From assembly GCA_963702005.1 (NCBI GenBank), contig OY969696.1, forward strand, positions 768,001-832,000: 64,000 nucleotides of DNA. The letters are read 5' to 3'. Positions 75 through 17,498 of this stretch are shown here, one piece after another. The notes below the pieces were generated by a model that worked only from the letters and a program-made list of their open reading frames with translations, made no database searches and was not told the DNA's origin. The DNA comes from Candidatus Aminicenantes bacterium. GTDB lineage: Bacteria > Acidobacteriota > Aminicenantia > Aminicenantales > JAFGBC01. Position 1 is the first letter of the stretch; every line of letters begins with the position of its first letter. Position numbers and translations under genes: made by a program.

Positions 75-1998
75 ATGGCCGGGCTCGACAAAGACCACGT
101 CATCTTCGGCACGGCCGGCCACATCGACCACGGCAAGAGCTCGCTGGTCAAGGCCCTGACCGGGACCGATCCCGACACGCTTCCTGAAGAAGAAGCTCCG
201 GGGGATGACGATCGAGCTCGGGTTCGTATTCCTGGACCTCCCCGACTACGAGAAGCAGATCGTCTTCATCGACGTCCCCGGCCACGAGCGGTTCGTCAAG
301 ACGATGGCGGCCGGGGCCTCGAACATCGACGCCGCCCTCCTGGTCATCGCCGCCGACGAGGGCGTATCGGTCCAAACCCGCGAGCACTTCGACATCCTCC
401 GTCTCCTCGACGTCCCGCTCGGGATGGTCGTCCTGACCAAGGCCGACCTGGTCGACGCGGACCGGATGGCCGAAGTCCGCGGCGACGTCGTCCGTTTCGT
501 CGCGGGCTCCTTCCTCGAGGGCGCTCCCCTTCTGGCCGTCTCGTCCGTGACCGGCGCCGGGATCCCCGAGCTCAAAGCGGCCCTGGTTGAGATGGGGCGG
601 AAAGTGCGGCGGCGGAGCGACACGGGCTTCTTCCGGATGCCGGTCGACCGCGTCTTCACCATCCAGGGCTTCGGCACGGTCGTGGCGGGAACGGTCCTGG
701 GCGGCGCGGTCGGCGTCGGCGACCGGATCGAGGTTTTTCCCGATCGGCTTCCGGCCCGGGTCCGGGGCGTTCAAGTCCACGGCCGCGGCGCCGAGCGGAG
801 CGGGATCGGGACACGGACGGCCCTCAACCTGATGGACGTCAAGAAGGAGGATCTGCGGCGGGGACAATGCGTCGCCGCGGCCGGCAGCCTGACGCCGACC
901 AACCGGCTCGACACGGAGCTTCTCTTGCTGGCCGACGCCGGCAAGGAGCTCAAGCACCGCGAGCGGGTCCGCCTCCACGTCGGGACGGACGAGGTCATCG
1001 CCCGAGTCGTCCTTCTCGACCGGGCCGCGGTCCAGCCGGGCGAGAAGGGCTTTGTCCAGTTCGTCCTAGAGGCGCCGACCGTGGCGCTTCCCGGCGACCG
1101 GTTCGTCATCCGGACCTTCTCGCCGCTGATGACGATCGGAGGAGGCCGGGTCCTCGACCCGACGCCGGGCCGGCACAAACGGTTCGACGATCAGGTCATC
1201 CAGGGGTTGGGCCGGCTCGAAGGGAGCCTCGACGAGGTCGTCGAACAGCTTTTAGTCAAGGCCCGTTTCGCGCCCCAATCTCTGAGCGAGCTGGAGTTGA
1301 GCCTGGGCGGCCGCGCCAAGGAGGTCAAGGAATCCGTCGCCGCGCTCGTCGCGGCGGGGAAGACCGTCGCCGTCCCGTTCGAGAAGGAGGAGCGCTACCT
1401 TCACGCCGGCGCCGCGGCCGAGCTCGCCGGGAGGCTCGTCGGACTCGTCAAGGACTACTTCGAGAAGTTCCCCCACAAGCTGTCGATGCCCCTCGGCGAC
1501 CTCCGCTCCCAGTTCCTGAAGCTGAGCGAGGCGGCCGTCTTCCGGAAACTCCTGGAGGAGCGGGCGGCCCAAGGCGCCTTGGACGCCCAGGGGACCGAGG
1601 TCCGCCTCCCCGAGCGCGGCGTTCGGATGACGGCCCGCGAGCAGGAACTGGCCCGCCGGATCGAGGAGGCCTATCTCAAGGCCGGCTACGACAGTCCGCT
1701 CGATGACGAGCTGTGCCGGACGTTGGGCGCCGAGCCGCCCCTGTTCGAGAAGGTCCTGTTCAGCCTCTACGACCAGAAAAAGCTGATCCGTCTCAACCCC
1801 AAGGTCACCTACCACGTCGATACGGTCGCCAGCATGAAGGCGCTCGTCCAGGAGCACCTCAAACGGAAAGGGGGCATCACGATCGCGGAGCTCCGGGATA
1901 CGATCAAGCTTTCGCGCAAGTACGCGCAGGCCGTCCTCGAGTATTTCGACCGGGTCGGGTTGACCCGGCGCGTCGAGGACCGCCATGTGCTAAAATAG
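75..1998 (+). CDS. selB: Selenocysteine-specific elongation factor SelB, with a +1 frameshift at ~186-195
   Basis: The ATG at 75 (RBS GGAGAGG) gives [19 protein letters not shown]. The frame from 205 gives [25 protein letters not shown] and a C-terminal winged-helix [13 protein letters not shown]. Deleting one A in GAAGAAGAAG restores [15 protein letters not shown]. Confidence 0.95.
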
Positions 1999-2010
1999 AC
2001 GACGACCCGC

Positions 2011-2106
2011 GGGAGGGTATAGGTTCCGGTGGGCCTTCTGGACTTCAAATCCAGCACGGGGCCGTGAAACGTCCCGGGTGGGTTCAACTCCCACACCTTC
2101 CCGCCA
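2011..2106 (+). tRNA. selC: tRNA-Sec (anticodon UCA)
   Basis: 8-bp acceptor stem GGGAGGGT/ACCTTCCC plus G-CCA; anticodon arm CTGGA-CTTCAAA-TCCAG; long variable arm; T arm GTGGG-TTCAACT-CCCAC; 96 nt long; 12 nt after the selB stop. Confidence 0.97.
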
Positions 2107-2902: not shown

Positions 2903-4264
2903 TCAGGGGGCCGTCTCGCCGCCAAGGTAGCTTCCGACGATCTCCCGCCCCGCCCGCATCAGCTCGTGGATCCAGGAGTAGGCGAAGCGGCCGCCGCGGC
3001 CGGCGAGCCTCAGGTTGCCGAACCGCCCCAAGTAGGAGAGGACGGTCTCGACGTTCTTCGCGCTCTCCCTCTCCAGGATGGGATAGGCATGAGAGAGCCG
3101 GCTGACCTCGGCGTCGATCGGATCGCCGCTTCCGAGCCAGCCGATATTGCGGAGGAGCGACGCCGTGCGCTCGACCAGGGACCCGTCCCCTGAATTCCAA
3201 ATTTCGTCCCCCCGCTGGCAGGGGATCTCGGCGACGAGCGAAGTCCTGCCGGCGGGCGCCATGCGCGCGCTCCGGTTCTTCGGTTCATAGACCCGCGTGA
3301 ACGGGAATTCTTTGTCCGGGAAATAAACGGTCGCCGCCTTCGTCACGGAATCGCAGCCGAGAAACAGGGCGACCAGGACGAGATCCCTGAAGCGCAAGAG
3401 AGAGGCGCTCCGCAGGACTCCGTCGGGCGGCCGGGGCGCCATCATCCGGATGAATTCGGGGAGCGGGAGGGAGCTTATAAACTCGTCGGCTTGGACGGTT
3501 GCGCCGCCCCCGGTTTCGACGGCCATAATCCGTACGCCGTCGTGGATGACCCGCGTCACGGGAGCGTTTGTCCGGATTCGCTCCTTTCCGCAGAATTCGA
3601 CCAGACGCTCGGCGAGGGCGCCGATACCCGGACGCGGATAATAAAAAGAGCCGTCGACGTGCTTGGTGCCCGCCTTCCGGCCCAGGAAGGCCTCGATCAG
3701 GACGGTGCCAAGGGTCAGCCCGTTCATGCGCCGGCCGGAGACCTCGGGAGACAGCTGCCGGCAGGGGACGCCCCAAAGCTTCTCGGAATAATTCAACAGG
3801 AAGCGCTCGCTGATCGTGTCGCCGTACTTGTTCCGGGCGAACGACTCGAAGTCGTCGCTCCGCCGGGCGGCTTTGAGCCGGCCGGACATGACCTGGACCC
3901 CGGATGAAAGGAAGGCCGCGGGACCCAGGCTCCTCATCAAGTTGAGCGGCAGGAAGGGGAAGTCGATCAGGATCCCCCGCCGGTAGATCTTGCTGGGGAC
4001 GTGGATCATTTCCAGCTCTCCGTCAAGCAGGGATCGAATCTCCGCCGTCGCTACGGGGTCCTTGTCGTGAATGCGGTGCGCCCCCGTGTCGTACAGGAAT
4101 TCCGTATGCTTCAGGGTCCGGGCGTTTCCCCCGCAGCGATCGCGGGCTTCGAGGACGATGAAGGGCAGTCCATTCTTCCTGGCGTAAAAGGCCGCCGACA
4201 GTCCGGCGACTCCGCCGCCCAAGATGGCGATCAGCCCCGGCCTTTGTCTCCGTCCGTCCTGCAT
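2903..4264 (-). CDS. FAD-dependent oxidoreductase (protoporphyrinogen oxidase/UDP-galactopyranose mutase-like, glycan-associated family)
   Basis: GGGVAGLSAA dinucleotide-binding motif, EARDRCGG, DTGAHRIH, YSEKLWG and C-terminal GRGGRFAY. Confidence 0.8.
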   Translation of the reverse strand: MQDGRRQRPGLIAILGGGVAGLSAAFYARKNGLPFIVLEARDRCGGNARTLKHTEFLYDTGAHRIHDKDPVATAEIRSLLDGELEMIHVPSKIYRRGILIDFPFLPLNLMRSLGPAAFLSSGVQVMSGRLKAARRSDDFESFARNKYGDTISERFLLNYSEKLWGVPCRQLSPEVSGRRMNGLTLGTVLIEAFLGRKAGTKHVDGSFYYPRPGIGALAERLVEFCGKERIRTNAPVTRVIHDGVRIMAVETGGGATVQADEFISSLPLPEFIRMMAPRPPDGVLRSASLLRFRDLVLVALFLGCDSVTKAATVYFPDKEFPFTRVYEPKNRSARMAPAGRTSLVAEIPCQRGDEIWNSGDGSLVERTASLLRNIGWLGSGDPIDAEVSRLSHAYPILERESAKNVETVLSYLGRFGNLRLAGRGGRFAYSWIHELMRAGREIVGSYLGGETAP

Positions 4265-4367: not shown

Positions 4368-6833
4368 TTATCGTATGGTCACGGTCGCGGGCGGGCCCTC
4401 GCGGCCCGTTTCCGGATCGACCGCGACAAGCCGGTACGTGTAGGCCTTGGTCTTGTCCACGCCGCGCTCCCGATACTCGAATGTCGCCGCGTCGAGCGAA
4501 GCGACGAGGCGCGGCGTCGTCCCCTCGACCAGGTAGAGCCGGTAGGTCAGCCCGGCGTCGTTGGCAGGATTCCGCCGCCAGTTCAGGACGTTGACGTACT
4601 CGACGAAGAGGAGCGAGCGGTTTTCTTTCTTCGTGCCTTTGAAGTCGAGCGGTTCGTAGATGGTCCGCTGGAATTCGGCCCGGACGGCCAGGTCGCGGTC
4701 GACGGTGACGGTCAAGGGATTCGTCGTCCCCGATGCGTCTCCGCTCCAACCCATGAAATGATAGTTCGAGGCCGCCGTCGCCGTGATGGTCACTTGACTT
4801 CCCGGGCTATGTTTATAGGTTCCGGGAGCGGGCGTCGTCGTGCCGCCCGAGGTCGCGCTGATGACGAGGGCGTACTGGCCGCCCGGCCGGATTTGGCAGA
4901 GGCCTCCGCCCGGGGTCGCGGCGACGAGCGTGCCGGTCCCCTTGACGAAGTCGAGGGCGCTGACCGTTTTCACGATCAGGCCCAGGCTGTAATCGGACCA
5001 GGAACTCCCGAAATCCACGCTCTTCCGGACGCCGGCCCAGCCGCCCGCGTAAACCTGGTTGGGGAGGGCCGGATTGACCGCGATGGCCGTCGTCGAGGCG
5101 GTCAGGCAATGGGTCCAGGTCGCGCCGGAGTCCTCGCTGCGGAAGACGCCGTCGTCGGACGCGGCGTAAATACGGAAGGGCGAGACGGGATCGAGGACGA
5201 GGGCGGTGATGGGAGCCGAAAATACGTTGGTCCCCAGCCCCGTCCAGGTTTCGCCTCCGTCCGATGTCCGGCAAACCGAGCCCAGGCTGTTCTGAGTGCC
5301 TCCGACATAGATGATCTGCTCGTTCGTAGGATGCACCGCGATGGCGCAGACCATCCCGGGATCGGGCAGGAGCTTGGACGCCCAATTGGCCCCTCCATCC
5401 GTCGAGATATACAAGGTGACATTGCTGCCCGGCGGACTGCCTCCCGCGTAAAGATGATCGAAGTTCTGGGAATGAACGACCAGAACATCGAGCTGGCCCT
5501 GCTGCAACAGGCTCGTCCAGCTGTTGCCTCCATCTACAGACCTGTAGATGTAGTCTCCGGACCCTCAGCCCTGGCCGGGCGCGATCATATAAACGGTCCG
5601 GGGGTTGCCGGGATCGACGGCCGCGATATAACCCTGATCGTCGCAGCTGTAAAAATAGGGGAGGAGGGACCAGGTCCGGCCGAAGCTGTCGCTCCGATAG
5701 AATCCGCAGTTGGAAACATTGGCATAAAGGACGTTGGGGTAAGAGGCCGGTACATAGAAGGACGGGACCCGGCAGGCCCGAACCCCGGTTTGACTGGCCG
5801 CCCAGGTCGCGCCCGCGTCCGTGCTGCGGTAGACTCCGGCGTCCGAGCCGAAGAAAACCGAGCTTCCCGCCACGGCCATGCGGCGGCAGTCGCCGAGAAG
5901 ACCCGTTTCGGCGGACGTCCAGTCGATGCCGCCGTCCGTGCTCTTGTAGACCCTTTTCTGATAGCCGGCATAGAGGACGGAGGAATTCGCCGGGTCGATG
6001 GCCAGCCCGTAAGCGCAGCTGGTGTTGGCGCTGCTCTGCCAGGTCTGTCCCGAGTCCGAGGAGCGATAGACGCCCCCTTCGGTCGCGGCGAAGACCCGGG
6101 AGGGATTGTTCGGATCCGTTGCCAGGTCGTAGATCTGGGTTGAGAGCCCGCCCGTGATGTCTTGCCAGGAATCGCCGCCGTTCGTCGTCCGGTAGACGAA
6201 GAATTTAGCCGTCGTGGCGGTCCGGTAAATCCCGCTGACATAAATGACGGCCGGATTCCCGAAATTGACGCAGAGGCTGTGGCTCTCGGCGAGATCCGCG
6301 CCGGGCGAGATTCGCTTGGACGTCCAGGTTTGGCCGCCGTCCGTCGTGCGGGCTAATCCGACCGAGGCCGTCTCGGACGTTATCTGGCCGAGGATGAACA
6401 GGCTGTCGGGATCGCTGGGATGGGCGGCCAGCCGTTCGAAGCTGGTGAAGCCGCGCGGATTCGTGAGCTGCGTCCAGGACGAGCCGCCGTTTCGGGATTT
6501 GAAAAGGGAGAGCCAGCTCATGGCATAGAGGCCGCCGCTTCCCGGAGGGCCGAAGGCGAGGTCCGTGATGGGATCATTGAATAACCCGATCCTCTTCCAG
6601 GTTTTGCCTTCGTTCGCGCTCCGGTAGACCTGGGCCGGCGTCGAATCGAAGACGGCCATGAGATCGTTGGCGTTCGCGGGATTCACGGCCAGGTCGCGCA
6701 GGCCGCCGCCGTCGGGACCGATCGATTTCCAAGCGGGGTTGTCCGCCCCGGCCGGCCGCGGCCGGGTTGGAGCGGCGGGAGGGCCGAGGATGAGCGCGGC
6801 TATCAGGATCGAGAATCCAATTCCTTTTTTCAT
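4368..6833 (-). CDS. Putative secreted selenoprotein (821 aa, Sec423): BNR/Asp-box beta-propellers, InlB-B-like bacterial repeat and C-terminal FN3-like domain
   Basis: ORFs 5565-6833 and 4368-5507 are in the same frame, separated only by a TGA at 5567-5565. Read-through gives APGQG-U-GSGDYIYRSVDGGNSW, an intact Asp-box. A SECIS-like hairpin follows, and the N-terminus is a signal peptide (MKKGIGFSILIAALILG). Confidence 0.85.
5531..5550 (-). promoter_or_regulatory. Bacterial SECIS-like hairpin CAUCUACA-GGUC-UGUAGAUG
   Basis: Perfect 8-bp stem with a GGUC loop starting 23 nt after the in-frame UGA. The CAGGUCUG core matches the apical part of the E. coli fdhF SECIS. Confidence 0.85.
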
Positions 6834-6885
6834 AAAAACACCCTCCGCCTGGAATCAGCAGGGTCCGAATCTGATTCCCGATTAT

Positions 6886-6914
6886 TTTATATAGGAGGGC
6901 GGTCGGGGAGTCAA
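6886..6914 (-). promoter_or_regulatory. Putative sigma70 promoter of selenoprotein gene 1
   Basis: TTGACT-N17-TATAAA on the minus strand, ~50 nt upstream of the ATG. Confidence 0.5.
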
Positions 6915-7050
6915 CCTTTCGACACCCATAGCCGTTTCCGGCTTAGTATGAGTGCTGCAAGGCTGCTCCCCGGCCCCGGATTGATTTGTGGAAGCTTTTC
7001 TGGTAAACAAGGGAGACAGGAACCGACATCGCGGGAAGGAGGTAGGGCTC

Positions 7051-9033
7051 ATGCAGGCTTGGAAGCGCCGATTCCCGGCGGCCCTCATCAAGATCCTGAT
7101 CCTCGGCGCGCTCGCCTTTCTTTCGGTCAAGCCGGCCGCCGCCCAGAATCCGATCGACTTTACCCTCAAGGACGCGGACGGCAATGACGTCCACCTCCGC
7201 GACTTCCTGGGCAATAAGGTCGTCCTGGTCGATTTCTGGGCGACCTGGTGCGTCCCCTGCGTCAAGGAGCTGTCCCACTTCCAGCGCTTCTACGAGTCCT
7301 ATAAGGACAAGGGTTTGGTCGTCCTGGCCATTTCCGAGGACGGCCCCGAGACCGTGGCCATGGTCAAGCCCTTCCAGCGGCGCTACAAGTACACCTTCAC
7401 CATCCTCCTCGACTCCGAATCCAAGGTCCTGGCCCTCTACAACCCGAGGGTCGTCTTGCCCTACACGCTCCTCATCGGCCGCGACGGCCGGATCGCCAAG
7501 ATCCACCAGGGCTACAGCCTGGGCGACGAGAAAATGCTCGAGCAGGAGATCGTCGAGCTTCTCGAGCCCAAGGCGGAAGTCAAGGCGAGCCGGATGTCGC
7601 TGAGCGCCAGCGAATCCTTCCTGTACCGCCATTTCACCGACAAGGATTATGTCGACGACTCGCGCGAGGGCCGGCCCAACCAAATCCTCAACAAGTTCGA
7701 CCTGACCCTTAACGCGGGCGATCTCCTGGTCGGGATCAGGGCCGACGCGAACCTCGACTTCTCGCCGATGCGGCACGATTACAGCCTGGCCAAGCGGTTC
7801 GTCGAGTTCAACAAATGGAACTTCAGCCTGCGGGCCGGGGATTTCTATTACTCGGTGGGGCGGGGGCTCGCCTTCAGCCTGCTCAAGATCTTCGAGAAGG
7901 AGGGCCTCGAGTACATCATCGACACGACCATCGAGGGCGGGAAGCTCAGCTACGGCGGGAACAAGTTCGAAGCCTGGGGGGGCTGGGTCGAACGCGAGCG
8001 GACGTCGCGGGAGGCGCCGATCGTCCGGGACCTGGTCGGGGGGCTGAGCGTCGGGACCCGCGTCTTGAGCTTCGCCGACGTCAACCTCAACGTCGTCGGG
8101 GCGCGGCTCGAGCCGGGCTCCGCGTTGGGGAGCCGGAACGTCTCCATGGAAACCCTGACCTTCTCGGCGGCCAAGATCGGCAATTTCGCCAAGTTCTACG
8201 GCGAGGGCCTCCTCATCCAGAAGGAAAAATTCTATGTCCCGAACACGATCTACGGCCACGGCGTTTATCTCGAGTCGGGGCTGTTCTTCGGGAACCTGAC
8301 TCTTTTATTCGAGTTCAAGGATTACCAGGACCTCGACTTCGAATACAACCGGCCGCCCCTGCTTGAGAGCGAGCAGCTGGCCGTCGTCGCCAACCAGTTC
8401 GTGACCTCGGCCAAGGACTCGACCGGCGCCGCGATCCGGGCCGATTGGTATTTCCCGGGGGCCTCGACCCTTCTCTTTGCCAAGGGCAGCTGGATCGACG
8501 ACCTGCCCGGCCACTTTCCGCGGACGATCACCCATTTTTTCGGGGGCGTCGAGAAGAAGTTCAAGGAGACGGGCTGGCTGACCCTGATCGGCGGCTACCG
8601 AAACGAGCAGGCGAGCTCCCTGGTTTTTTACTATACGGCGGGCCGGACCTTCCATTGGCAGGGGAATCTCAGCTATCCCCTGACCAGGCGTCTGAGCCTC
8701 GAGCTCGACATCGAGGCCAAGGACTTCGACGGAACGGTCCCCTTCGGAGGGAGGTTTACCGATTATTTCGAACGGCGCTCGTACCTGTCCTTGAGCTACT
8801 CCCCCCGTCTCATCCTGACCGTCCTCTACGACCGGACGGACGACCCCGAGATCCTGGCCGTCAAGAACAAGAAGGATTGGTGGGGGACGCAGCTCGAGAT
8901 CAAACTATCCCACGCCAAGTCGATCCGGATCTTCTACGGGTCCAACAAGGGGGGCGTCAAGTGCGCGGGCGGCGTCTGCAAATTCTTCCCGCCCTTCGAA
9001 GGGTTGAGGATCGACGGCGTCCTTAGGTTCTGA
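7051..9033 (+). CDS. TlpA-type thioredoxin fused to a DUF6029-like outer-membrane barrel
   Basis: AGGAGG RBS before the ATG at 7051; signal peptide; DFWATWCVPC; C-terminal amphipathic beta-strands ending GGVKCAGGVCKFFPPFEGLRIDGVLRF with a terminal Phe. Confidence 0.8.
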   Translation: MQAWKRRFPAALIKILILGALAFLSVKPAAAQNPIDFTLKDADGNDVHLRDFLGNKVVLVDFWATWCVPCVKELSHFQRFYESYKDKGLVVLAISEDGPETVAMVKPFQRRYKYTFTILLDSESKVLALYNPRVVLPYTLLIGRDGRIAKIHQGYSLGDEKMLEQEIVELLEPKAEVKASRMSLSASESFLYRHFTDKDYVDDSREGRPNQILNKFDLTLNAGDLLVGIRADANLDFSPMRHDYSLAKRFVEFNKWNFSLRAGDFYYSVGRGLAFSLLKIFEKEGLEYIIDTTIEGGKLSYGGNKFEAWGGWVERERTSREAPIVRDLVGGLSVGTRVLSFADVNLNVVGARLEPGSALGSRNVSMETLTFSAAKIGNFAKFYGEGLLIQKEKFYVPNTIYGHGVYLESGLFFGNLTLLFEFKDYQDLDFEYNRPPLLESEQLAVVANQFVTSAKDSTGAAIRADWYFPGASTLLFAKGSWIDDLPGHFPRTITHFFGGVEKKFKETGWLTLIGGYRNEQASSLVFYYTAGRTFHWQGNLSYPLTRRLSLELDIEAKDFDGTVPFGGRFTDYFERRSYLSLSYSPRLILTVLYDRTDDPEILAVKNKKDWWGTQLEIKLSHAKSIRIFYGSNKGGVKCAGGVCKFFPPFEGLRIDGVLRF

Positions 9034-9111
9034 AGCCGGGAACGGGCCGGACGTTATCGCCTATCCGTTCCAGGGGGGATTTGAAAAAGTGACAAAGTGT
9101 AGGTTTGACCC

Positions 9112-9867
9112 TCACAAGTATTTTTGGATGATGTTATCGACCTCGGCTTTGATGTAACCCTCCCGCTTGTAGCGGATGGTCCGGTTCCGGTCCATGATGT
9201 GGGGGAGGGGGATCGAATTCCGCCGGAATTGATCATAGATGGCGTGGCTGTTGTCGTCCAGGACCGGGAAGGTCAGTTTATAAGTCTCGGACCAGGTCTT
9301 GGCGCTCCCCTCGATGACGCATAGGATGTACATGAATCCCTTGCCCTTGAGGCTCTGATAGAAGGACTCGGCCGTTTCGGCCTTCTCCCGGCAGGGGCCG
9401 CACCAGTCGGCCGAGAAATCGAGCAGGATGACCTTGCCGTGGTAGGCCGAGAGAGTCACGTCGGCGCCGTTCTGGTCCTTGGCAGTGAAATCGAGGGCGA
9501 TAGACCCTTCCTCGGTCCCGTAGGTCGCGGCCGAGGCCGTGAAGGCCAGGTCGCTCCGCGAAGCCGACCCGACCTCATAGTCGGAGGGGCTGAAGGCGTA
9601 GCCGAGCCGCGAAGGCGTGATGATGTACCCTCCGCCGGGAAGATCGCTGAAGCTGAACCGTCCGTCGCTTCCCGTCGTCGTGGACTTAGAGGCGTCCCAG
9701 GACAAGTAGACGTCGATACCGGGAAGGGCCTGGCCGCCCTGGCTGACGGGGCCGCTGAAGCTCAGCAGGGACCCCTCGGGCCCGGTCGTCGTGGAAGTCT
9801 TGCAGGCCCCCAAGGCCAGGAGCCCGATCGCGAGGGCGAGAATGGCGACCCGGTTCGTCCCGTTCAT
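9112..9867 (-). CDS. Lipoprotein: carboxypeptidase-regulatory-like domain plus TlpA/AhpC-TSA thioredoxin domain
   Basis: Lipobox LGAC; TGSDGRFSFSDLPGGGYII; DFSADWCGPC. Confidence 0.82.
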   Translation of the reverse strand: MNGTNRVAILALAIGLLALGACKTSTTTGPEGSLLSFSGPVSQGGQALPGIDVYLSWDASKSTTTGSDGRFSFSDLPGGGYIITPSRLGYAFSPSDYEVGSASRSDLAFTASAATYGTEEGSIALDFTAKDQNGADVTLSAYHGKVILLDFSADWCGPCREKAETAESFYQSLKGKGFMYILCVIEGSAKTWSETYKLTFPVLDDNSHAIYDQFRRNSIPLPHIMDRNRTIRYKREGYIKAEVDNIIQKYL

Positions 9868-10009
9868 GATGACTCTCCTTCGGGGACTTTCGCTCTCCAG
9901 TATAGGTCAAGCTTCCGGCTTGTCAACCCCTCAACACACACGAACCGTTCCCGGTTCGTGAGTACTGCAAGGCGGGCTTAACGTCGGCGAACGGGTCAAC
10001 CGGCCGTCC

Positions 10010-10903
10010 TCAGCCGGCTTTGTCCGGGGCCGGCGCGGAAGCGGCCGGAGCCCTGGCCCCCAGGAATTCGTATTGGATCGAGCCCATGGCGCAGGAGTCC
10101 ACGCATTTGAGGCAGCGGATGCAGTCCGGCGAATTGGGCCGCTTGTAGACCTCGATGTCCAGCGGGCAGGACCGGGCGCACTTGCCGCAGGAGGTGCAGG
10201 TTCCCTCGTCGATCGTCATCCGGAATACGGAGGCCTTGTTGAAAAGCCCGAAGATGGCGCCCAGTGGGCAGGCCGTCCGGCAGAACGGCCTCATGCTGAA
10301 GACCATCCAGATCAGGAACAGTACCAGGACGCCCATCTTCCACTTGAACATGAAGGCGAGCTGGGCCCTGATCCCGGCGTTGAGGGCCGCGAGGGGGATG
10401 CCGGCGATCAAGGTCCCGTCGGGGCAGATCCACTTGCAGAACCAGGTCTGGCCGTAGCCGAACTCGTCGACGAGGAGGAGGGGCAGCGCGAAGACGAACA
10501 GGACCGTGATGATGTAGCGGAGGTAGGTCAGGACGCGGGGGATACGGAGCTTGGGCGATGGAATTTTATGGACGAGCTCTTGGACGAGGCCGAACGGGCA
10601 GAGCCAGCCGCAGGGAATGCGGCCGACCAGGCTCCCCACGGCCCCTAAGATCCCGAGGACGTAGAAACCGAATTGGTGGACGGCGACCGAGAGGTTGAAG
10701 CGGAGGGCCCCCAGGAAGTTCTGAAGGGAGCCGACCGGGCAGGCCCCGATCGCGGACGGGCAGGAGTAGCAGTTGAGGACGGGCAGGCAGATCCCCTTGA
10801 TGCCGCCCTGGAAGATCTCGCCCTTGAGCCAGTTGGGGAGGTAGGCGTTGAAGCCCAGGACGGCGGCGGCTTGGACCCATTTCCGGGTGCGTTGTCTGGC
10901 CAT
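10010..10903 (-). CDS. Membrane 4Fe-4S binding protein (NapH/MauN-like polyferredoxin)
   Basis: CLPVLNCYSCP, CGWLCPFG, FCKWICP and FCRTACPLG motifs; ferredoxin motifs CTSCGKCARSCP and CIRCLKCVDSC; several TM helices. Confidence 0.88.
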   Translation of the reverse strand: MARQRTRKWVQAAAVLGFNAYLPNWLKGEIFQGGIKGICLPVLNCYSCPSAIGACPVGSLQNFLGALRFNLSVAVHQFGFYVLGILGAVGSLVGRIPCGWLCPFGLVQELVHKIPSPKLRIPRVLTYLRYIITVLFVFALPLLLVDEFGYGQTWFCKWICPDGTLIAGIPLAALNAGIRAQLAFMFKWKMGVLVLFLIWMVFSMRPFCRTACPLGAIFGLFNKASVFRMTIDEGTCTSCGKCARSCPLDIEVYKRPNSPDCIRCLKCVDSCAMGSIQYEFLGARAPAASAPAPDKAG

Positions 10904-10925
10904 GGTCGCGCTCCTCGGACGGGGC

Positions 10926-11060
10926 TCAGCCGATCCCGATGCAGTCCAGGCAGATCGTCACGGCCTTCTCCAGGACGGTCTGGAATTCGCCGAGCTTGAG
11001 GCCGATCAGGATCAGGACGACCGACGCCGCGAACAGGATCCAGGGCAGCTTCCGTTTCAT
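10926..11060 (-). CDS. Small membrane CxxC peptide, CD1871A-like (44 aa; not in ORF track)
   Basis: MKRKLPWILFAASVVLILIGLKLGEFQTVLEKAVTICLDCIGIG*. The ICLxCIGIG end and the position between a TlpA gene and a 4Fe-4S gene are characteristic. The ATG overlaps the TlpA stop. Confidence 0.85.
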   Translation of the reverse strand: MKRKLPWILFAASVVLILIGLKLGEFQTVLEKAVTICLDCIGIG

Positions 11061-11674
11061 TTACCGCTCCCCTTGACGAGAGCGCCGATGATCTCGTCAA
11101 GCTCCGTGATGTGCTCTTTTTTAAACCCGATATGGGCGTGACTGATGACGCCGGTTGCGTCGATGAGATAGACGACCGGAATTTCCTGGACCTTATAGCG
11201 GCCCGCCATGTCCTTGGTCGTCTGGATGACGTCGGCCGCGGCCGCCCGGTCGGGGGGATCGGCCAGCATCGGGTAGCTGATCTTGAGCTTCCCGTAGAAG
11301 GGCTTGACGACCCTGGACCCCTTCTGGTCGAGGGCGATTCCGAACAGTTGAAGGCCGCCCTCGGCCTGGCCGGGCTTGGGCTGATACTTTTCGTAGAGTT
11401 GCTGCATATAGGGCATGGCCGCCCGGCAGGGGACGCACCAGGTCGCCCAGAAGTCGACCAAAACGCCGGCCGGGTAGGTCTTGGCCTGTTCCGGCTTGCC
11501 GTTGACGACCTTCTCGGTCAGCAGGCAGAGCCGGCCGTTTTCGAGGAAGACGGTATAGGTGACGTCGTCGACGCCCTTGAGGCTGAAGGGAATGAGGCGA
11601 TCGCCTTTGGCCAGGATGCCGAATACGGCCGGGGCCATCGCCAGGACTAGGGCGAGGATGATGAGCCGCTTCAT
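11057..11674 (-). CDS. Periplasmic TlpA-family disulfide reductase
   Basis: Signal peptide; VDFWATWCVPC; cis-Pro loop QEIPVVYLID. Confidence 0.88.
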   Translation of the reverse strand: MKRLIILALVLAMAPAVFGILAKGDRLIPFSLKGVDDVTYTVFLENGRLCLLTEKVVNGKPEQAKTYPAGVLVDFWATWCVPCRAAMPYMQQLYEKYQPKPGQAEGGLQLFGIALDQKGSRVVKPFYGKLKISYPMLADPPDRAAAADVIQTTKDMAGRYKVQEIPVVYLIDATGVISHAHIGFKKEHITELDEIIGALVKGSGK

Positions 11675-12261
11675 GAAGGCTCCTTGGGGACGGGGGTTTG
11701 GGACCCGATATTGAAACCGATCCCCAAGGCGAGCTGGAAACCTCCGATATCGGCTTTGATGTCCTGTGGCTTGACCTTGCAGCGCGTGTAGCCGGCCTGG
11801 ACGTCGACGAGGACGCCGCCCGGGATCTCGAGAAAGGCCCCGGCCTTCAGGCCGACGCCGAGGCTCCCTTTTTCGACGACCCCGATGACGCTCTTTTCTT
11901 TATACTGGAAATAGCCCAGCCCGGCGCCGACGTAGGGGCGGATAAAGCCGGTCAGCGGGATCTGGTACTTGACGCCGGCCAGGATAGGAATGATCCGGAG
12001 CTTGGCCTCTTCCCCGGTCAGGGTCAGCGCTCCCGTTTTGCTGAAGTAATCGGCGCTCGCCCAGATGGCGAACCGGCCCGCCAGTCCGACCGTGACTTCG
12101 CCCCCCAAGCACAAGCCGCCGCCGTAGATGTCCTTGAAGGCGGTCTCGGTCGGCTGGAAATAGACGGCTTTGGCCTCGATGACGAAGGCGTTCGCCGCGG
12201 GGGCCGCGGCCAGGAACGCCAACCCCAGGCACATAAGCGTCGCCAGCGTTTTAATTTTCAT
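11671..12261 (-). CDS. Small outer-membrane beta-barrel protein (OmpW/OmpA-TM-like)
   Basis: Signal peptide; alternating beta-strands including RPYVGAGLGY and GGFQLALGIGFN. Confidence 0.75.
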   Translation of the reverse strand: MKIKTLATLMCLGLAFLAAAPAANAFVIEAKAVYFQPTETAFKDIYGGGLCLGGEVTVGLAGRFAIWASADYFSKTGALTLTGEEAKLRIIPILAGVKYQIPLTGFIRPYVGAGLGYFQYKEKSVIGVVEKGSLGVGLKAGAFLEIPGGVLVDVQAGYTRCKVKPQDIKADIGGFQLALGIGFNIGSQTPVPKEPS

Positions 12262-12278
12262 GGTTCCTCTCTCTTCCT

Positions 12279-14771
12279 TCAGCGGACCGTGATCGTAGCT
12301 TCCTGACCTTCGCGGCCCGTCTTATCGACGGCCAGGAGCGCGTAGGTATAGGTCTTGTCCTTTTCGACCCCGCGCTGCCGGAACTCGAGGATGGAAGAAT
12401 CGAGCTCGGCCAGGAAACGGCGCGTCCCCCCTTCGGCGAGGTAGATCCGGTAGGTTCGGATGTCGACGTTGGCGGGGTTGGCCCGCCAGCTCAGGACGTT
12501 GATGTATTCGGCCGAGATGACGCCGCGGTTGATTTTTTTGACGCCGGTCGCGTCGAGGGGCGGATAGATGCTTCGGATGAAACCGGCCGCCAAGGACTTA
12601 TCGGAGTCCATCAGGAGCGTCAGGGGATTAACCGTCCCGGTCGCGCTCCCCGTCCAGCCCGTGAACTCGAAGTTGGGTTCGGGGAGGGCCGTGACCGAGA
12701 CCGAGCTATTCATGTCGTAGGAATGATTCCCCGGCGCGGGATCGGTCGTCCCGCCCGTCGTCGCGCTGAGGCTGAGGACGAAGCGGCTCGACTGACGATA
12801 GCGGAAGACGCCGCCCCCGTTCGTCCCGACGAACAGGGTTTTGGTCGTGGGATTGACGCCCAGGGTGAGAACGTTCCGGACCGGCAGGGTGGCATTGAGG
12901 TCCGTCCAGTCCAGGCCGCGGTTCGCGCTGGCATAGACGCCGTCCGTGCCGGCGATGGTGATGGAAGAGGTCGCGACGGGATCGATATAAATGCAGGTCA
13001 CCGGAGTGTCGGCCAGTTTGGTCCAGGTCGCGCCGCCGTTCTCGCTCCTGAACAAGCCCCCGTTCGTGCCGGCGTAGATCGTCGCCGCAGCAGCCGGATC
13101 GACGGCCAGATCCTGGATCGGGTCGGCGAAAATTCCGGCGGCGAGTTTGGTCCAGCTCGTCCCCCCGTCGAGCGATTTATAGAGGGCGCCGGCCGAGTTG
13201 ACCGTGCCGCCCAGATAGACGGTCCTGTCGTTCGCCGGATCGATCGCGACGGCGAGCGCCGCCGCGGGGGTCGAACCGGCGACCGCGGAATCCGAGACCA
13301 AGTACGTGTCCCAGGTAGTCCCGGCGTCGAGGGTTTTATGCATCGCCATGACCTGAACCCCCGACACGCTCGTGTATCCGGCGATGAACAGGTGGTTGGG
13401 ATTGCGCTCGTTGAGAAGAAGGTCCTTAAAGCTCTTGGTCAACAAATGCTCCCAGCTCTTACCGCCGTCTACAGACCTGTAGACGTCATCCGCCCCTCAG
13501 CCTCCGGCCAGAATGTAGAGCTTGTCCGGATTGGTCGGAGTGACGACGATCCGCAGGACTTTGTCGCAGCGATAGAAGTCCGGCAAGCGCTGCCAGGAAG
13601 TTCCGCTGCTGAGGCTCCGGTAGAAGCCGTTGGCTTGGAACTCGATGTAGATGGTGCCGGCCGCGGAGGGGGCAACCCCCAAGGCCGGGATGAGGGACGC
13701 CTGGATGCCGGAATGGGAGGCTTCCCAGGTTTGCCCCCCGTCCGTGCTCTTATAAACGCCGCCCGTGGAGCCGAAGTAAATCGCCGAAGCCGTGATAACG
13801 ATGGCCCGGCCGGCTCCGTAAAGGCCGACGCCGAACTCCGTCCAGTTGACGCCGCCGTCCACGCTTTTATAGCACTTCTTATCGTACCCGGCGTAGAGGA
13901 CGTCCGGGTTGGCCGGGTCGACGGCCAGCGTGTAGCCGAAGGCGAAGCCCTCGTTCCTCTGCCAGGACCGTCCGCCGTCCGTGCTGCGGTAGATTCCCCA
14001 GCTCGTCGCCGCCCAGACCTTGTCCGGGTTCGTCGGGTGGACGGCCAGGGAGGTGACCAGGTCCGTGATCTCCGTCCCGATGATCGACCAGGACGTCCCT
14101 CCGTTCACCGACTTGTACATCCGATAGATGGCGGCGACCCCGGTCGTGAGCGAGCCGGCCAGGTAGAGGGTCGACGGGCTCGAGGGGGCGACGGCCAAAG
14201 CCGTCGCCGAGCCTGTGTCCGAGCTCGGGCTGAGCTTGACGGTCGTCCAGGTCCGGCCGCCGTCCGCGGTCTTGAAGAAAGCCATGCAGTTCTTCCCCGC
14301 TAAGGCGCCGTAGGCCCCCGTGGCGTAGACGATATTCGAGTTCGAGGGGTGGATGGCCAGCTTGCCGCCGACGGAGAAGCGGTTGGCGCCGAAGGCAAAT
14401 TCGGACCAGGACACGCCCTTGTCCTCCGATTTGAGGATGCCGGTATCGGTCAGGATGTAAGCGATGTTGGCGTCGCGATTGACGGCCAGGTCCAGGGCCG
14501 TACGCTCGAACGTCGCCCGGCGTGCCCAGCTCCGGCCTCCGCTTGTCGTCCAAAAGACCTGGCTGAACCCGGTGAGCCCGGAGAGGGCCAGAAGCTCGCT
14601 TTGTTTTGAGGGGTTCAGCGCGAGCGTCGTGATGCTCCCCCCTTCCGGTCCCAGCGCTTCCCAAGCGGCGGCCGCCGGCCGGAATCTCGGGGTGGATACC
14701 CTCTCCCCCGCGCCGAACGCGAGGCTGAAGAATACCGAGAGACCGATTCCGATGGCGCCGATCTTTCTCAT
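12279..14771 (-). CDS. Putative secreted selenoprotein paralog 2 (830 aa, Sec425): BNR beta-propellers, bacterial repeat and FN3-like domain
   Basis: ORFs 13497-14771 and 12279-13445 are in frame, separated only by a TGA at 13499-13497. Read-through gives LYILAGG-U-GADDVYRSVDGGKSW. It has the same hairpin as paralog 1 and a signal peptide (MRKIGAIGIGLSVFFSLAFGA). Confidence 0.85.
13466..13485 (-). promoter_or_regulatory. Bacterial SECIS-like hairpin CGUCUACA-GGUC-UGUAGACG
   Basis: Perfect 8-bp stem with the loop 20 nt after the UGA. It differs from copy 1 only by a compensatory A-U to G-C pair. Confidence 0.85.
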
Positions 14772-15410: not shown

Positions 15411-17498
15411 TTATTTCTTGGGGTCGAATCTGACCAGGTAACTATCATAAGAGCCCTTGAGCATCTTTTGGAATGCGCGGATGGTCGGGAAATCCGGGCT
15501 GTTTGTTAGGCCCGCGACATAGATCTTGGAATCCGGGGTTACAAAGAGCGTACCTGCTTTGTCATAAAAGGACCCACCCAAGAAGGTTGAAAAAACGAGG
15601 CTTTGTCCGTCCGCGGAAAGAACCGACATGAATGAATCGGTGGTCCCGTTTTTCTTTTTTTGAACGGCGTTCTTGAGGGGGAAATCGGCACTCGTGGTAT
15701 CTCCGCCCAGATAGACCTGCCCTTTCCCATCCAGGGCGACACAATTGAGGAAATCGTGGCCCGATCCCCCAAAGTACGTGGAATAGACGAGACTCTGCCC
15801 ATCGGGCGCAAACTTGGTCACGAAACCGTCTATCCCTTTTCGGACGGTCCGGAAGGCCTTACATAAAGGAAAGCGGCCGTTGGTAAAGCCGCTGATCACG
15901 AGGGCGCCGGAGTCGTCTACTGCGATTCCGGTGGGAGAGTCATAGCTCGAGCTTCCCAAATAAGTGGAATAGACAAGCCGCCGACCGTCCGATGCGAGCT
16001 TGGCGACGAAAACGTCATACATCCCTCCGAAGAGCTTCTGGAACGCATTTTTAACCGGGAAATTCACGCTGAACGTCGTCCCGACGATATAGGCCGCGCC
16101 GGCCCTATCGACTGCGATCCTTTCCGGCCGGTCATAATTTGAGCCCCCGAGATAGGTCGAATAGACGAGCGTTCGGCCATCCGGGGAGAATTTGGTAATG
16201 AAGACATCATCCATTCCTGCGAGTCGGCCTTGGATGGGATGGTACAATCGGAGGTTCTTGCTCGCCGTACATCCCGAAATGACGGGCGAGCCATTCGGGT
16301 CCAGGCCGATGGCGTTGATATAGTCATAGTCGGAACCTCCGAAGTAGCTGGAAAAAACCAGGCTCCGGCCGTTCGGAGCAAGCTTGGTGATGAATCCATC
16401 GTAGTCCCCACCCCCGAATTTTTCCTGAAAAGCGTTCTTGATTGGAAATTTGTTATTGGCGGTATAGCCGACAATAGTGGCGGCCCCCGACTCATCGACG
16501 GCCAGATCTAAAGGGGAACCACTGACCAAGGGAAAGAAGGCCGAATAGACAAGCGATTGACCGTCGCTAGCCATCTTGAGAACAAAGGCATCCCATCGCG
16601 CGATGTATAAAGATATGGAGTTCCCAGTGGCGACGGGAAAATCGGGGCTGAAAGTCTGACCGGTTAAGAAGACCTCTCCCGACGGGGCTGCGGCAATAGC
16701 GGTTGTGTAGTCATAGTCCTTCCCTCCGAAATAAGTGGAATAGCCGATGGTGTAGGGGTCGATGAAAAGGTCCCGGGAACGGTCATGGGGACCGACCTTT
16801 ATTCCGAATTCGTTGCGGGCGATCTCTCTGAATCCGGCCTCAACCCTGATCCGCCGGCCGGAATCTTCCTGATAGGCCGAGGGTCTTCGGTGCTCAGCTG
16901 CGCCGCGCGATGTCTCGATGACAAGATTTCCCTCGCCATCGATGATCGTCTTGTCGGCTCCCTCGAACACCATCCGGATCCGACCGGGGTCTCCTCCGGG
17001 CTTTACGATCCAGTCGTATTCGACCTCCTGTTCGGCGCTGTAGATTTTAAGGTCGATGCGGTCATAGATTTCTTTGTACAGGACGGCCGAGGAAGTCGGC
17101 AGGCCCGTTATCCAATCGGCGGGCTGGCTGCCGTTGAAATAACTAACCGTATAGTCGGCGGGGTTGAGCGCCATGATCTTGCACTTCGGAGAAAGCCCTT
17201 TGAAAATAAGCCGCGTCACTTCGCGCGTGCGGGCCGTTCCGTCCCCGGGCCCGGGTTTCAGGCTATCGAAGATCAAACCTTCCCGGGTCAACCATAGGGT
17301 CGTCCGACCCAAATTGGCATAGAAGAGGGCGCGGCCGTCCTCTTGACCTCGGTTGGCAATAAAATAGAGCGGGATCTTCGGCATCCCCGGGGCCGGGGTT
17401 TGAAAAGAATCAGCCCCTGCCGCCGGGATGGTCAGGCTCATCCCCAGATCGGTCACTGCCCAGATTACGAACAAGACAAGCCAAGCACCCTTTTTCAT
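15411..17498 (-). CDS. Secreted SBBP (beta-propeller) repeat protein
   Basis: PLYFIANRGQ N-terminal domain and repeated YSTY(F/L)GGS..D....IAVD..G..Y..G.T.S..FP units. Confidence 0.85.
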   Translation of the reverse strand: MKKGAWLVLFVIWAVTDLGMSLTIPAAGADSFQTPAPGMPKIPLYFIANRGQEDGRALFYANLGRTTLWLTREGLIFDSLKPGPGDGTARTREVTRLIFKGLSPKCKIMALNPADYTVSYFNGSQPADWITGLPTSSAVLYKEIYDRIDLKIYSAEQEVEYDWIVKPGGDPGRIRMVFEGADKTIIDGEGNLVIETSRGAAEHRRPSAYQEDSGRRIRVEAGFREIARNEFGIKVGPHDRSRDLFIDPYTIGYSTYFGGKDYDYTTAIAAAPSGEVFLTGQTFSPDFPVATGNSISLYIARWDAFVLKMASDGQSLVYSAFFPLVSGSPLDLAVDESGAATIVGYTANNKFPIKNAFQEKFGGGDYDGFITKLAPNGRSLVFSSYFGGSDYDYINAIGLDPNGSPVISGCTASKNLRLYHPIQGRLAGMDDVFITKFSPDGRTLVYSTYLGGSNYDRPERIAVDRAGAAYIVGTTFSVNFPVKNAFQKLFGGMYDVFVAKLASDGRRLVYSTYLGSSSYDSPTGIAVDDSGALVISGFTNGRFPLCKAFRTVRKGIDGFVTKFAPDGQSLVYSTYFGGSGHDFLNCVALDGKGQVYLGGDTTSADFPLKNAVQKKKNGTTDSFMSVLSADGQSLVFSTFLGGSFYDKAGTLFVTPDSKIYVAGLTNSPDFPTIRAFQKMLKGSYDSYLVRFDPKK

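Follow-up and report, generated by a model that had tools for sequence, protein, structure and literature searches.

A predicted family of exported beta-propeller selenoproteins encoded beside selABCD in an Aminicenantes bacterium

Within a stretch of 64,000 nucleotides (nt) of the chromosome of Candidatus Aminicenantes bacterium (contig OY969696.1, positions 768,001 to 832,000; the whole stretch is called the window below) lie two related genes, A and B, each of which is interrupted by a single in-frame TGA. Does this codon end translation, or is it read as selenocysteine (Sec), so that each gene encodes one long protein? Our analysis indicates, with a probability of roughly 0.88, that A and B are members of an exported selenoprotein family in which Sec would be inserted at the UGA; selenium incorporation, export and function are what we infer from here on. 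To our knowledge, the Aminicenantes have no cultured members. The two genes and their internal TGAs are located in the window as follows:

4368..6833, minus strand: gene A, coding for a predicted exported GH74-like double beta-propeller with an InlB-B-repeat-like (Flg_new_2) domain and a C-terminal beta-sandwich (translation, Pfam)
5565..5567, minus strand: in-frame TGA of gene A, codon 423, read as predicted Sec (translation, paralog alignment)
12279..14771, minus strand: gene B, a paralog with the architecture of gene A (translation, Pfam, AlphaFold2, Foldseek)
13497..13499, minus strand: in-frame TGA of gene B, codon 425, read as predicted Sec (translation, alignment, contigs of sequencing runs X2 and X3)

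When TGA is translated as Sec (U), gene A forms one frame of 821 codons with a lone internal TGA at codon 423 and a terminal TAA, and gene B one of 830 codons with a lone internal TGA at codon 425 and a terminal TGA. Translation confirmed in this respect what an earlier note on this DNA had claimed, and its description of the two genes as diverged paralogs whose downstream halves could start only at a TTG also held: the proteins share 41% identity, and the earliest start codon 3′ of the TGA is a TTG at position 5507 in gene A and at 13445 in gene B. The residues around the TGA are GQG-U-GSGDYIYRSVDGGNSW in gene A (also written GQG-U-GSGDYIYRSVDGG) and AGG-U-GADDVYRSVDGGKSW in gene B (also written AGG-U-GADDVYRSVDGG). 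Most proteins of the family begin with MKK followed by a hydrophobic stretch, and export is therefore likely, which fits the exported location that the note had proposed.

A rival reading of such a locus is that the TGAs are true stops and that each locus comprises two genes, or a decaying pseudogene, with the C-terminal part made from the downstream TTG. Open reading frame (ORF) calling with translation table 11 yields exactly this two-gene picture, as each of genes A and B is reported as two ORFs with the second starting from TTG. Public gene predictions split these genes as well, as the earlier note had expected of standard annotation (P0155 and P0156 end at ...ILAGG, and P0010 begins after the TGA), and one paralog (chromosome positions 756165-757466, with a fragment at 757339-758136) looks damaged, with an extra TAG and a truncated N-terminus. 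Against true stops, the downstream half has no signal peptide, and in the structural model described below a stop here would fall between strands B and C of a single blade, such that neither half could close its propeller.

A survey of paralogs gave further evidence on this point. Gene B, searched against all six frames of the 4.3-Mb chromosome, yielded 72 matches, and the best 24 of these 72 places include 14 TGA-bearing paralogs, i.e., genes A and B and twelve more, rather than the two that had been noticed before. Each of the 14 carries one in-frame TGA in the same alignment column (14/14), always after a Gly codon, and in all of them the TGA is followed by a hairpin. The paralogs are 32-41% identical to gene B, and the recurrence of one column over this range of divergence argues against true stops. 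Six other full-length paralogs in the same genome have no TGA. Since six of the 14 TGA-bearing paralogs, gene B included, terminate at a TGA, this codon is still a stop codon in the organism.

The same TGA column and hairpin were found in five genes of a same-genus genome and one gene of a genome from another family in the order (G001 and G040), and in one gene of a genome from another family of the phylum (G091; hairpin CAUCUAC-AGGUCC-GUAGAUG). Together with the present genome (G000), these are genomes with Sec machinery, in agreement with the prediction that the TGA would be kept at one column in such genomes. Genome G016 was dropped as a TGA-form genome, its internal TGAs being off the Sec column and in poorly aligned stretches. 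Among 339 genomes of the class, a pattern made of GGYTGA, a gap of 10-19 nt and a 16-nt hairpin core occurs in seven, with 20 matches, 10 of them in this genome; the reversed pattern has no match in the same 339 genomes.

Scanning metagenome contigs with this pattern returned at least 80 loci, with 86 matches among those listed. The gap measures 13 nt in 57 of the listed matches, 16 nt in 25 and 19 nt in 4, and none has any of the seven possible out-of-frame lengths; thus, all 86 listed matches are in frame. Among the matches listed, the open frame around the TGA extends over a median of 440 amino acids (aa) before and 237 aa after it, and codes for the same family. The constant frame and the shared column in these 86 listed copies are likewise unexpected of true stops.

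The TGA of gene B is also present in independent assemblies. One contig of run X2 spans all 1201 nt of the gene B site region with 35 differences, one contig of run X3 spans 449 nt with 10 differences, and both keep the TGA and the hairpin in gene B variants that are 97-98% identical; runs X1 and X4 cover the site partially. In run X2, the variants upstream of the TGA comprise 10 synonymous and 4 non-synonymous changes and those downstream 10 and 10, with the downstream non-synonymous changes clustered in a low-confidence loop (residues 483-503), numbers that are too small to weigh.

The note had placed a hairpin downstream of each TGA as a putative selenocysteine insertion sequence (SECIS), and this element proved to be conserved, to show compensatory changes and to use unusual codons. 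In genes A and B it consists of a stem of eight base pairs (bp) closed by a GGUC loop:

5531..5550, minus strand: predicted SECIS hairpin of gene A, CAUCUACA-GGUC-UGUAGAUG, 8-bp stem (folding, sequence, alignment, pair counts)
13466..13485, minus strand: predicted SECIS hairpin of gene B, CGUCUACA-GGUC-UGUAGACG, 8-bp stem (folding, sequence, alignment, pair counts)

Counted from the U of the UGA, the stem starts at 17 nt in gene A and at 14 nt in gene B. The consensus in the paralogs is (C)RUCUACA-GGUC-UGUAGAY(G), with 8 bp; the apical loop is GGUC in 12 of the 14 and GUUC in the other two, and it starts 22 nt from the U of the UGA in 10/14 and 25 nt in 4/14. The hairpin is at the same time coding sequence, which in gene A specifies (Y)IYRSVD of an Asp-box blade. 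In other sequencing runs, contigs of other paralogs match gene B at the nucleotide level only at 13452-13489, i.e., at the hairpin.

Covariation was analyzed in 20 hairpins that had been located via protein homology (14 from this genome, five from the same-genus genome and one from the other family of the order). Pairing is maintained in 99.4% of cells, and just 16-56% of cells pair in registers with the partner shifted by one to three columns. Compensatory changes occur at two stem pairs, from G-C to A-U in four sequences and from A-U to U-A in two, and the latter alters the encoded Tyr/Val (Y/V) to Phe/Glu (F/E). The observed covariation score was attained by none of 500 shuffles. Moreover, at the first pair beyond the searched 16-mer, which links the first base of the Val/Ile codon with the wobble base of the Asp codon, 80 unique metagenome copies among the matches listed have G-C in 56 cases, A-U in 23 and A.C in one.

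Codon usage sets the hairpin apart from the peptide that it encodes. The blade that follows the TGA uses AGG for Arg and TCT for Ser, each in 12/12 cases; among 52 other [YF]RSx[DN] motifs of the TGA genes and the TGA-less paralogs, AGG is used in eight and TCT in three. Because these codons are fixed only at the blade after the TGA, the hairpin is not a mere by-product of the YRSVD peptide. A 325-aa family fragment without TGA on the minus strand (chromosome positions 4061301-4062221) encodes VFRSVNGG at the homologous blade with TTC AGG TCT GTT AAC; it keeps the AGG TCT codons but neither TGA nor full stem, and may be the relic of a former Sec gene. When the genome was scanned for hairpins with 7 bp or more in the stem and GGTC or GTTC in the loop, 117 were identified, 13 of them in the propeller family; for none of the remaining ones is an upstream TGA flanked by a convincing coding frame on either side and in both directions at once. 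Translation of five further hairpins that have a GGUC loop and a TGA upstream led to their rejection as non-coding. Were the TGAs true stops, the hairpin, its covariation and the codon bias would be left without a role, and we regard that reading as extremely improbable.

Which residues occupy the Sec column in relatives without TGA? We compared 29 full-length TGA-less homologs, six encoded in this genome and 23 representatives retrieved by searching 1.84 billion proteins; the latter (about 640-870 aa, spanning the site) were taken from the best 150 matches, of which the other 127 were left out, giant repeat proteins dominating the 150. The column holds Cys in six, Ser in eight, Asn in three, Gly, Val, Thr and Pro in one each, and a gap in eight. 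In a tree of 85 sequences, for which the metagenome Sec forms had been chosen by hairpin and the TGA-less forms by score, Sec forms appear in every major branch with Cys forms interleaved; the Cys form P0030, for instance, has a Sec paralog as its sister, and the sisters of the Cys paralog 2125115 are two Sec paralogs. This pattern fits an old Sec site with recurrent replacement by Cys and recurrent loss. The expectation of Cys at the aligned position was thus borne out only in part, individual Cys forms being sisters of Sec forms in a column that is not a conserved Cys; all the other computational checks that the note had suggested turned out in its favour. A homolog search with residues 375-475 gave 25 matches, mostly distant BNR proteins on non-orthologous blades.

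Decoding of UGA as Sec calls on SelB and tRNA-Sec, both of which the note had located nearby, and indeed the complete selABCD set lies in the cluster of genes A and B, in the order selA, selD, selB, selC:

chromosome 765451-766824: selA, just upstream of the window
chromosome 767020-767940: selD, just upstream of the window
205..1998, plus strand: selB, Sec-specific elongation factor (Pfam GTP_EFTU, Beta-barrel_SelB, SelB-wing_2 and SelB-wing_3; TIGR00475 over cut-off)
2011..2106, plus strand: selC, tRNA-Sec with anticodon UCA (ARAGORN; Rfam RF01852, 73.8 bits)

Immediately upstream of these genes, four family members form a tandem array on the minus strand (chromosome positions 756165-764670), the first of them being the damaged paralog, and genes A and B follow downstream. 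SelA scores over cut-off in all four TGA-form genomes (G000, G001, G040 and G091) and SelB in 17 of 41 relatives, G000, G001 and G040 included.

In addition to the propeller family, two thioredoxin-like genes of the same genome carry U-G-S-C at the place of CxxC, each with a single in-frame UGA and a signal peptide:

chromosome about 1013349-1015058, plus strand: thioredoxin-like (DsbD-gamma-like) U-G-S-C protein with TPR repeats, 569 aa
chromosome about 2162569-2164092, minus strand: thioredoxin-like (DsbD-gamma-like) U-G-S-C protein with TPR repeats, 507 aa

Their hairpins, ACUGCUG-GUC-CAGCAGU and GUACUGCUG-GGU-CAGCAGUAU, have loops that start 21 nt after the U of the UGA, and therefore a classical UxxC selenoprotein in the same cell would use an element of the same type and spacing. 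The two are likely further selenoproteins, and neither matches NF041046 ('UGSC-containing protein') at E <= 0.001. They are the two that look real among nine candidates with a Cys near the TGA. A codon-usage screen of the genome passed 8 of 14 known genes and left 648 candidates, and a hairpin-plus-TGA screen left 269, nearly all visibly out-of-frame noise. The formate dehydrogenase-like genes (PF00384) of this genome contain no internal stop. Altogether, we count at least 16 predicted selenoprotein genes in the genome.

The Sec machinery also bears on the possibility that UGA is recoded to give Trp, Cys or Gly, through a suppressor tRNA, a near-cognate tRNA or an altered code, with the hairpin acting as a pause or read-through stimulator. 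Sequence alone is compatible with more than one inserted residue, and the Ser, Gly or Asn found at the column in many TGA-less homologs would suit such a replacement. An altered code is contradicted by the six paralogs that terminate at TGA, the only tRNA gene that ARAGORN found in the window is tRNA-Sec with its UCA anticodon, and the full selABCD set is part of the same cluster. As further points against recoding to another residue, loop and spacing agree with those of the two U-G-S-C genes and of the Escherichia coli fdhF type, and selA accompanies the TGA form in all four genomes. We consider such recoding very unlikely.

Under the selenoprotein reading, the ribosome would meet the UGA in the middle of a blade, with a hairpin of 8 bp and GGUC apex starting 14 or 17 nt downstream, whose sequence would double as the code for (V/I)YRSVD, with which the next Asp-box strand begins. 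Through this hairpin SelB would be brought in with Sec-tRNA(Sec), Sec would be inserted and translation would go on. The predicted product starts with a signal peptide, followed by a GH74-like pair of propellers and, in A and B, by the InlB-B-repeat-like domain and a beta-sandwich.

Some observations weigh against this reading. The Sec column is occupied by a residue other than Cys, or by a gap, in 23 of the 29 TGA-less homologs, a second alignment places Cys there in only 4 of the 23 representatives, and the role of Sec is therefore dispensable in many relatives. The metagenome copies had been retrieved by means of the hairpin sequence, and what they show is therefore breadth and frame rather than independent conservation of the 16-mer. 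The folding energy of the hairpin regions is unremarkable, with z = -1.75 and -1.97 for 60-62 nt and -0.83 and -1.07 for 50 nt. No Rfam SECIS family matched, either in the whole window at gathering thresholds or in 13400-13520 up to E = 10, where two chance-level matches to unrelated families were obtained. Given the ordinary folding energy and the absence of Rfam SECIS matches, the SECIS assignment rests on comparison.

What kind of protein would carry this Sec? Pfam assigns Sortilin-Vps10, BNR and PSII_BNR repeats and a Flg_new_2 domain to genes A and B. Sortilin-Vps10 (PF15902) scores 124.4 bits (A) and 118.2 bits (B) against a cut-off of 33, in five and four separate stretches, respectively, and PSII_BNR scores 45 bits against a cut-off of 27. 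The NCBIfam model NF045728 ('F510_1955 family glycosylhydrolase') reaches 228 and 210 bits (cut-off 175), scores that are sums over five stretches of a 246-position model on proteins of 821 and 831 aa; as the match is repeat-level, membership in this equivalog is doubtful. For gene B, AlphaFold2 was run on a 25-sequence alignment and gave a model with a mean predicted local distance difference test score of 90.4. When this model was compared with the PDB by Foldseek, each of the best 20 matches was a GH74 xyloglucanase, i.e., a tandem seven-bladed propeller (E 1e-25 to 1e-22, TM-score 0.40-0.61, identity 14-18%, about 720-800 columns), and sortilin, SorCS2 and SorLA reach TM-scores of only 0.16-0.26. 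The predicted fold of the family is thus a GH74-like pair of seven-bladed Asp-box propellers, and the VPS10 scaffold that the earlier note had suggested is replaced by this double propeller.

In the model of gene B, residue 425 closes strand 418-425 and the next strand comprises residues 427-433, which would place Sec at the turn between strands B and C of the ninth blade, just before the Asp-box. Because this residue lies between adjoining strands, a stop there would split one blade. In GH74, the catalytic Asp70 is located at the strand B-C turn of blade 1 (D in 2cn2, A in 2cn3, at YARA-D-IGGAYRW). No conserved Asp was found at the B-C turns of blade 1 and blade 8 in the family, where D occurs in 11 of 85 sequences at each, and therefore the family is not a GH74-type hydrolase. 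GH74 enzymes have two catalytic aspartates, one per propeller, the second being D480. A weak pseudo-symmetric alignment (per-domain E 0.42) puts Sec one blade after the catalytic-Asp blade. A sequence-profile alignment to GH74 was discarded, being out of register owing to the repeats.

The genes between A and B (window 6988-12261) form a compact extracytoplasmic redox gene set of three CxxC redoxins, a Fer4_5 protein, a peptide and an outer-membrane barrel:

6988..9033, plus strand: TlpA/ResA-like thiol:disulfide oxidoreductase (WCVPC) fused to DUF6029 (Pfam AhpC-TSA, Redoxin, DUF6029; NCBIfam ResA and TlpA below cut-offs)
9112..9867, minus strand: CarboxypepD_reg domain with TlpA-like redoxin (WCGPC) (family searches, motif)
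10010..10903, minus strand: NapH/MauN-like membrane polyferredoxin (Fer4_5) (Pfam Fer4_5 67.8 bits; NCBIfam napH 64 bits, below cut-off)
10926..11060, minus strand: 44-aa membrane peptide ending in CLDCIGIG (CxxC), single copy in the genome (ORF reading)
11057..11674, minus strand: TlpA-like redoxin (WCVPC) (family searches, motif)
11671..12261, minus strand: outer-membrane beta-barrel (OMP_b-brl), directly downstream of gene B (Pfam)

On this basis we tentatively propose, at less than even odds, that the family provides an extracytoplasmic selenol/thiol redox site. Situated at the ninth blade's B-C turn, Sec would pair with a Cys in the loop entering the same blade (Cys402 in gene B), as blade topology predicts that strand A begins next to where strand B ends, on the same face. 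The NapH-like protein is a candidate electron conduit to the outside of the membrane, and would supply the three TlpA-like thioredoxins that may keep the redox site of A and B reduced. Cys402, which lies in the loop into strand A, is present in 39 of 56 Sec forms and Cys396 in 16 of 56.

The main alternative is that these are real selenoproteins in which Sec has no redox role and serves, on an extracellular binding scaffold, to ligate or capture a soft metal or metalloid (Hg, Cu, As, or Fe-S or sulfide mineral surfaces), or as a nucleophile for non-redox chemistry in the GH74-like cleft. This reading, which we consider somewhat unlikely, draws on the same points that count against a redox site: the local motif GG-U-G is no known redox motif, with neither CxxU nor UxxC, the proposed partner Cys402 is not universal, and the TlpA/NapH set adjoins only A and B and none of the other 12 paralogs, its genes having no close second copy beside another family member. 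The latter neighbour peptidases (M28, S9, S58 and M20), GH42-like, SLT-LysM, a kinase and a radical S-adenosylmethionine (SAM) enzyme, and no partner common to their neighbourhoods was found. The family is also expanded in the manner of a substrate-binding family, and several selenoprotein families in the part of PMC13188914 given as Table 1 are metal binders. Against this alternative stand the three TlpA-like thioredoxins and the NapH-like ferredoxin at the A/B locus, the Cys at 402 or 396 in 55 of 56 Sec forms if the two sets are disjoint, and a neighbourhood in which we saw neither a metal-binding motif nor a metal-related gene.

In its widest and most speculative form, which we hold to be unlikely, the redox proposal would describe these proteins as undescribed, environmentally widespread exported selenoproteins on a glycosidase-like double propeller, whose selenol and blade-loop Cys perform new extracytoplasmic chemistry on polymers or minerals in the cleft between the propellers, for example reductive cleavage or capture of sulfur- or selenium-containing material. 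Electrons would come from a dedicated relay of NapH-like ferredoxin and TlpA-like thioredoxins. The SECIS would have been born from the Asp-box repeat and then frozen into it, so that the Sec site could spread by gene duplication, in what would be the largest bacterial paralogous selenoprotein expansion.

Further genes of the window and chromosome were noted in passing. Between selC and gene A, window 2903-4264 on the minus strand encodes a flavin adenine dinucleotide (FAD) amine-oxidase-like protein of 453 aa, with best NCBIfam matches to PRK07208 'hypothetical protein' models, all below cut-offs. DUF7948 with SBBP beta-propeller repeats is found in two minus-strand proteins of 695 aa (window 15411-17498) and 954 aa (52361-55225), the latter in a stretch of lower G+C content (0.51-0.55 at 52-58 kb versus about 0.63 elsewhere). 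B12-binding radical-SAM proteins are encoded at window 55505-56926 (minus strand) and at chromosome 3602266-3603783 (plus strand), the second lying two genes downstream of a tandem pair of family members (3596379-3600372).

The earlier note knew of no selenoprotein on a VPS10/BNR propeller, and none was found in the sources consulted. The 2026 review PMC13188914 tabulates 119 prokaryotic selenoprotein families, and its Table 1, to which this statement is confined, contains no BNR, Asp-box, Vps10, GH74 or propeller family. Main-text portions of PMC13188914 (review), PMC12013277 (deep-Sep) and PMC13326102 (BSepDB) contain no BNR, propeller, sortilin or glycosyl hydrolase selenoprotein. A literature search found nothing on selenoproteins of Aminicenantes or on bacterial BNR selenoproteins, and literature joining selenocysteine, beta-propeller and SECIS concerns, among the matches listed, eukaryotic SELENOP or receptors.

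The family would put Sec on a carbohydrate-hydrolase-like beta-propeller outside the cytoplasm, with 14 copies in this one genome. Most prokaryotic selenoproteins are thioredoxin-fold or metal-cofactor oxidoreductases and are usually encoded in single copy. So expanded a family likely matters for extracellular substrate processing by Aminicenantes in anoxic sediments and wetlands. In practical terms, gene callers report each such gene as two 'hypothetical proteins' in several genomes and in no fewer than 80 metagenome contigs, and the signature of hairpin and TGA would mend these calls. A hairpin within the code of a repeat motif would moreover be a concrete case for the origin of a SECIS and its spread by duplication.

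Among known systems, SelB-dependent genes of the Escherichia coli fdhF type share with the propeller family the in-frame UGA, a hairpin within the coding sequence at a fixed short distance and the presence of sel genes. The fdhF SECIS loop carries a GGUC-type apex, with matching loop and spacing. In contrast to these genes, the family has a beta-propeller instead of an oxidoreductase fold, is present in 14 copies in one genome, and has its SECIS fused to the repeat motif YRSVD, with a core that is near-invariant at about 35% protein identity. The two U-G-S-C proteins of the same genome are likewise predicted to be exported, with a single UGA and a GUC or GGU apex, but have a classical UxxC on a thioredoxin-like domain with TPR repeats.

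With regard to the scaffold, the closest structural match is GH74 (Clostridium thermocellum Xgh74A, PDB 2cn2 and 2cn3), which has tandem seven-bladed Asp-box propellers and Asp70 at a B-C turn, the same kind of position that Sec is predicted to take in its own blade; in contrast to GH74, the family lacks the conserved catalytic Asp, has extra C-terminal domains and is only 14-18% identical. Likeness to the Sortilin/Vps10, Ycf48 and F510_1955 BNR families is repeat-level, with four to five stretches per protein, and Ycf48 (NF010237) scores 50 bits against a cut-off of 326. A Vps10 domain is a single ten-bladed propeller with a 10CC module, whereas the family is predicted to have two seven-bladed ones, and we know of no description of these three families as Sec-containing. 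Predicted extracytoplasmic selenoproteins without an oxidoreductase fold have been tabulated before, namely the FCYXU type of TonB-dependent receptor, the MtrB/PioB-type barrel and the ABC substrate-binding SaoB and SaoX (PMC13188914, Table 1); their folds are unrelated, and that table reports for them neither a beta-propeller nor a comparable expansion of paralogs. The proposed recoding mechanism is standard, and what would be new is the family together with its scaffold, the merging of its SECIS with a repeat motif and its growth to 14 copies.

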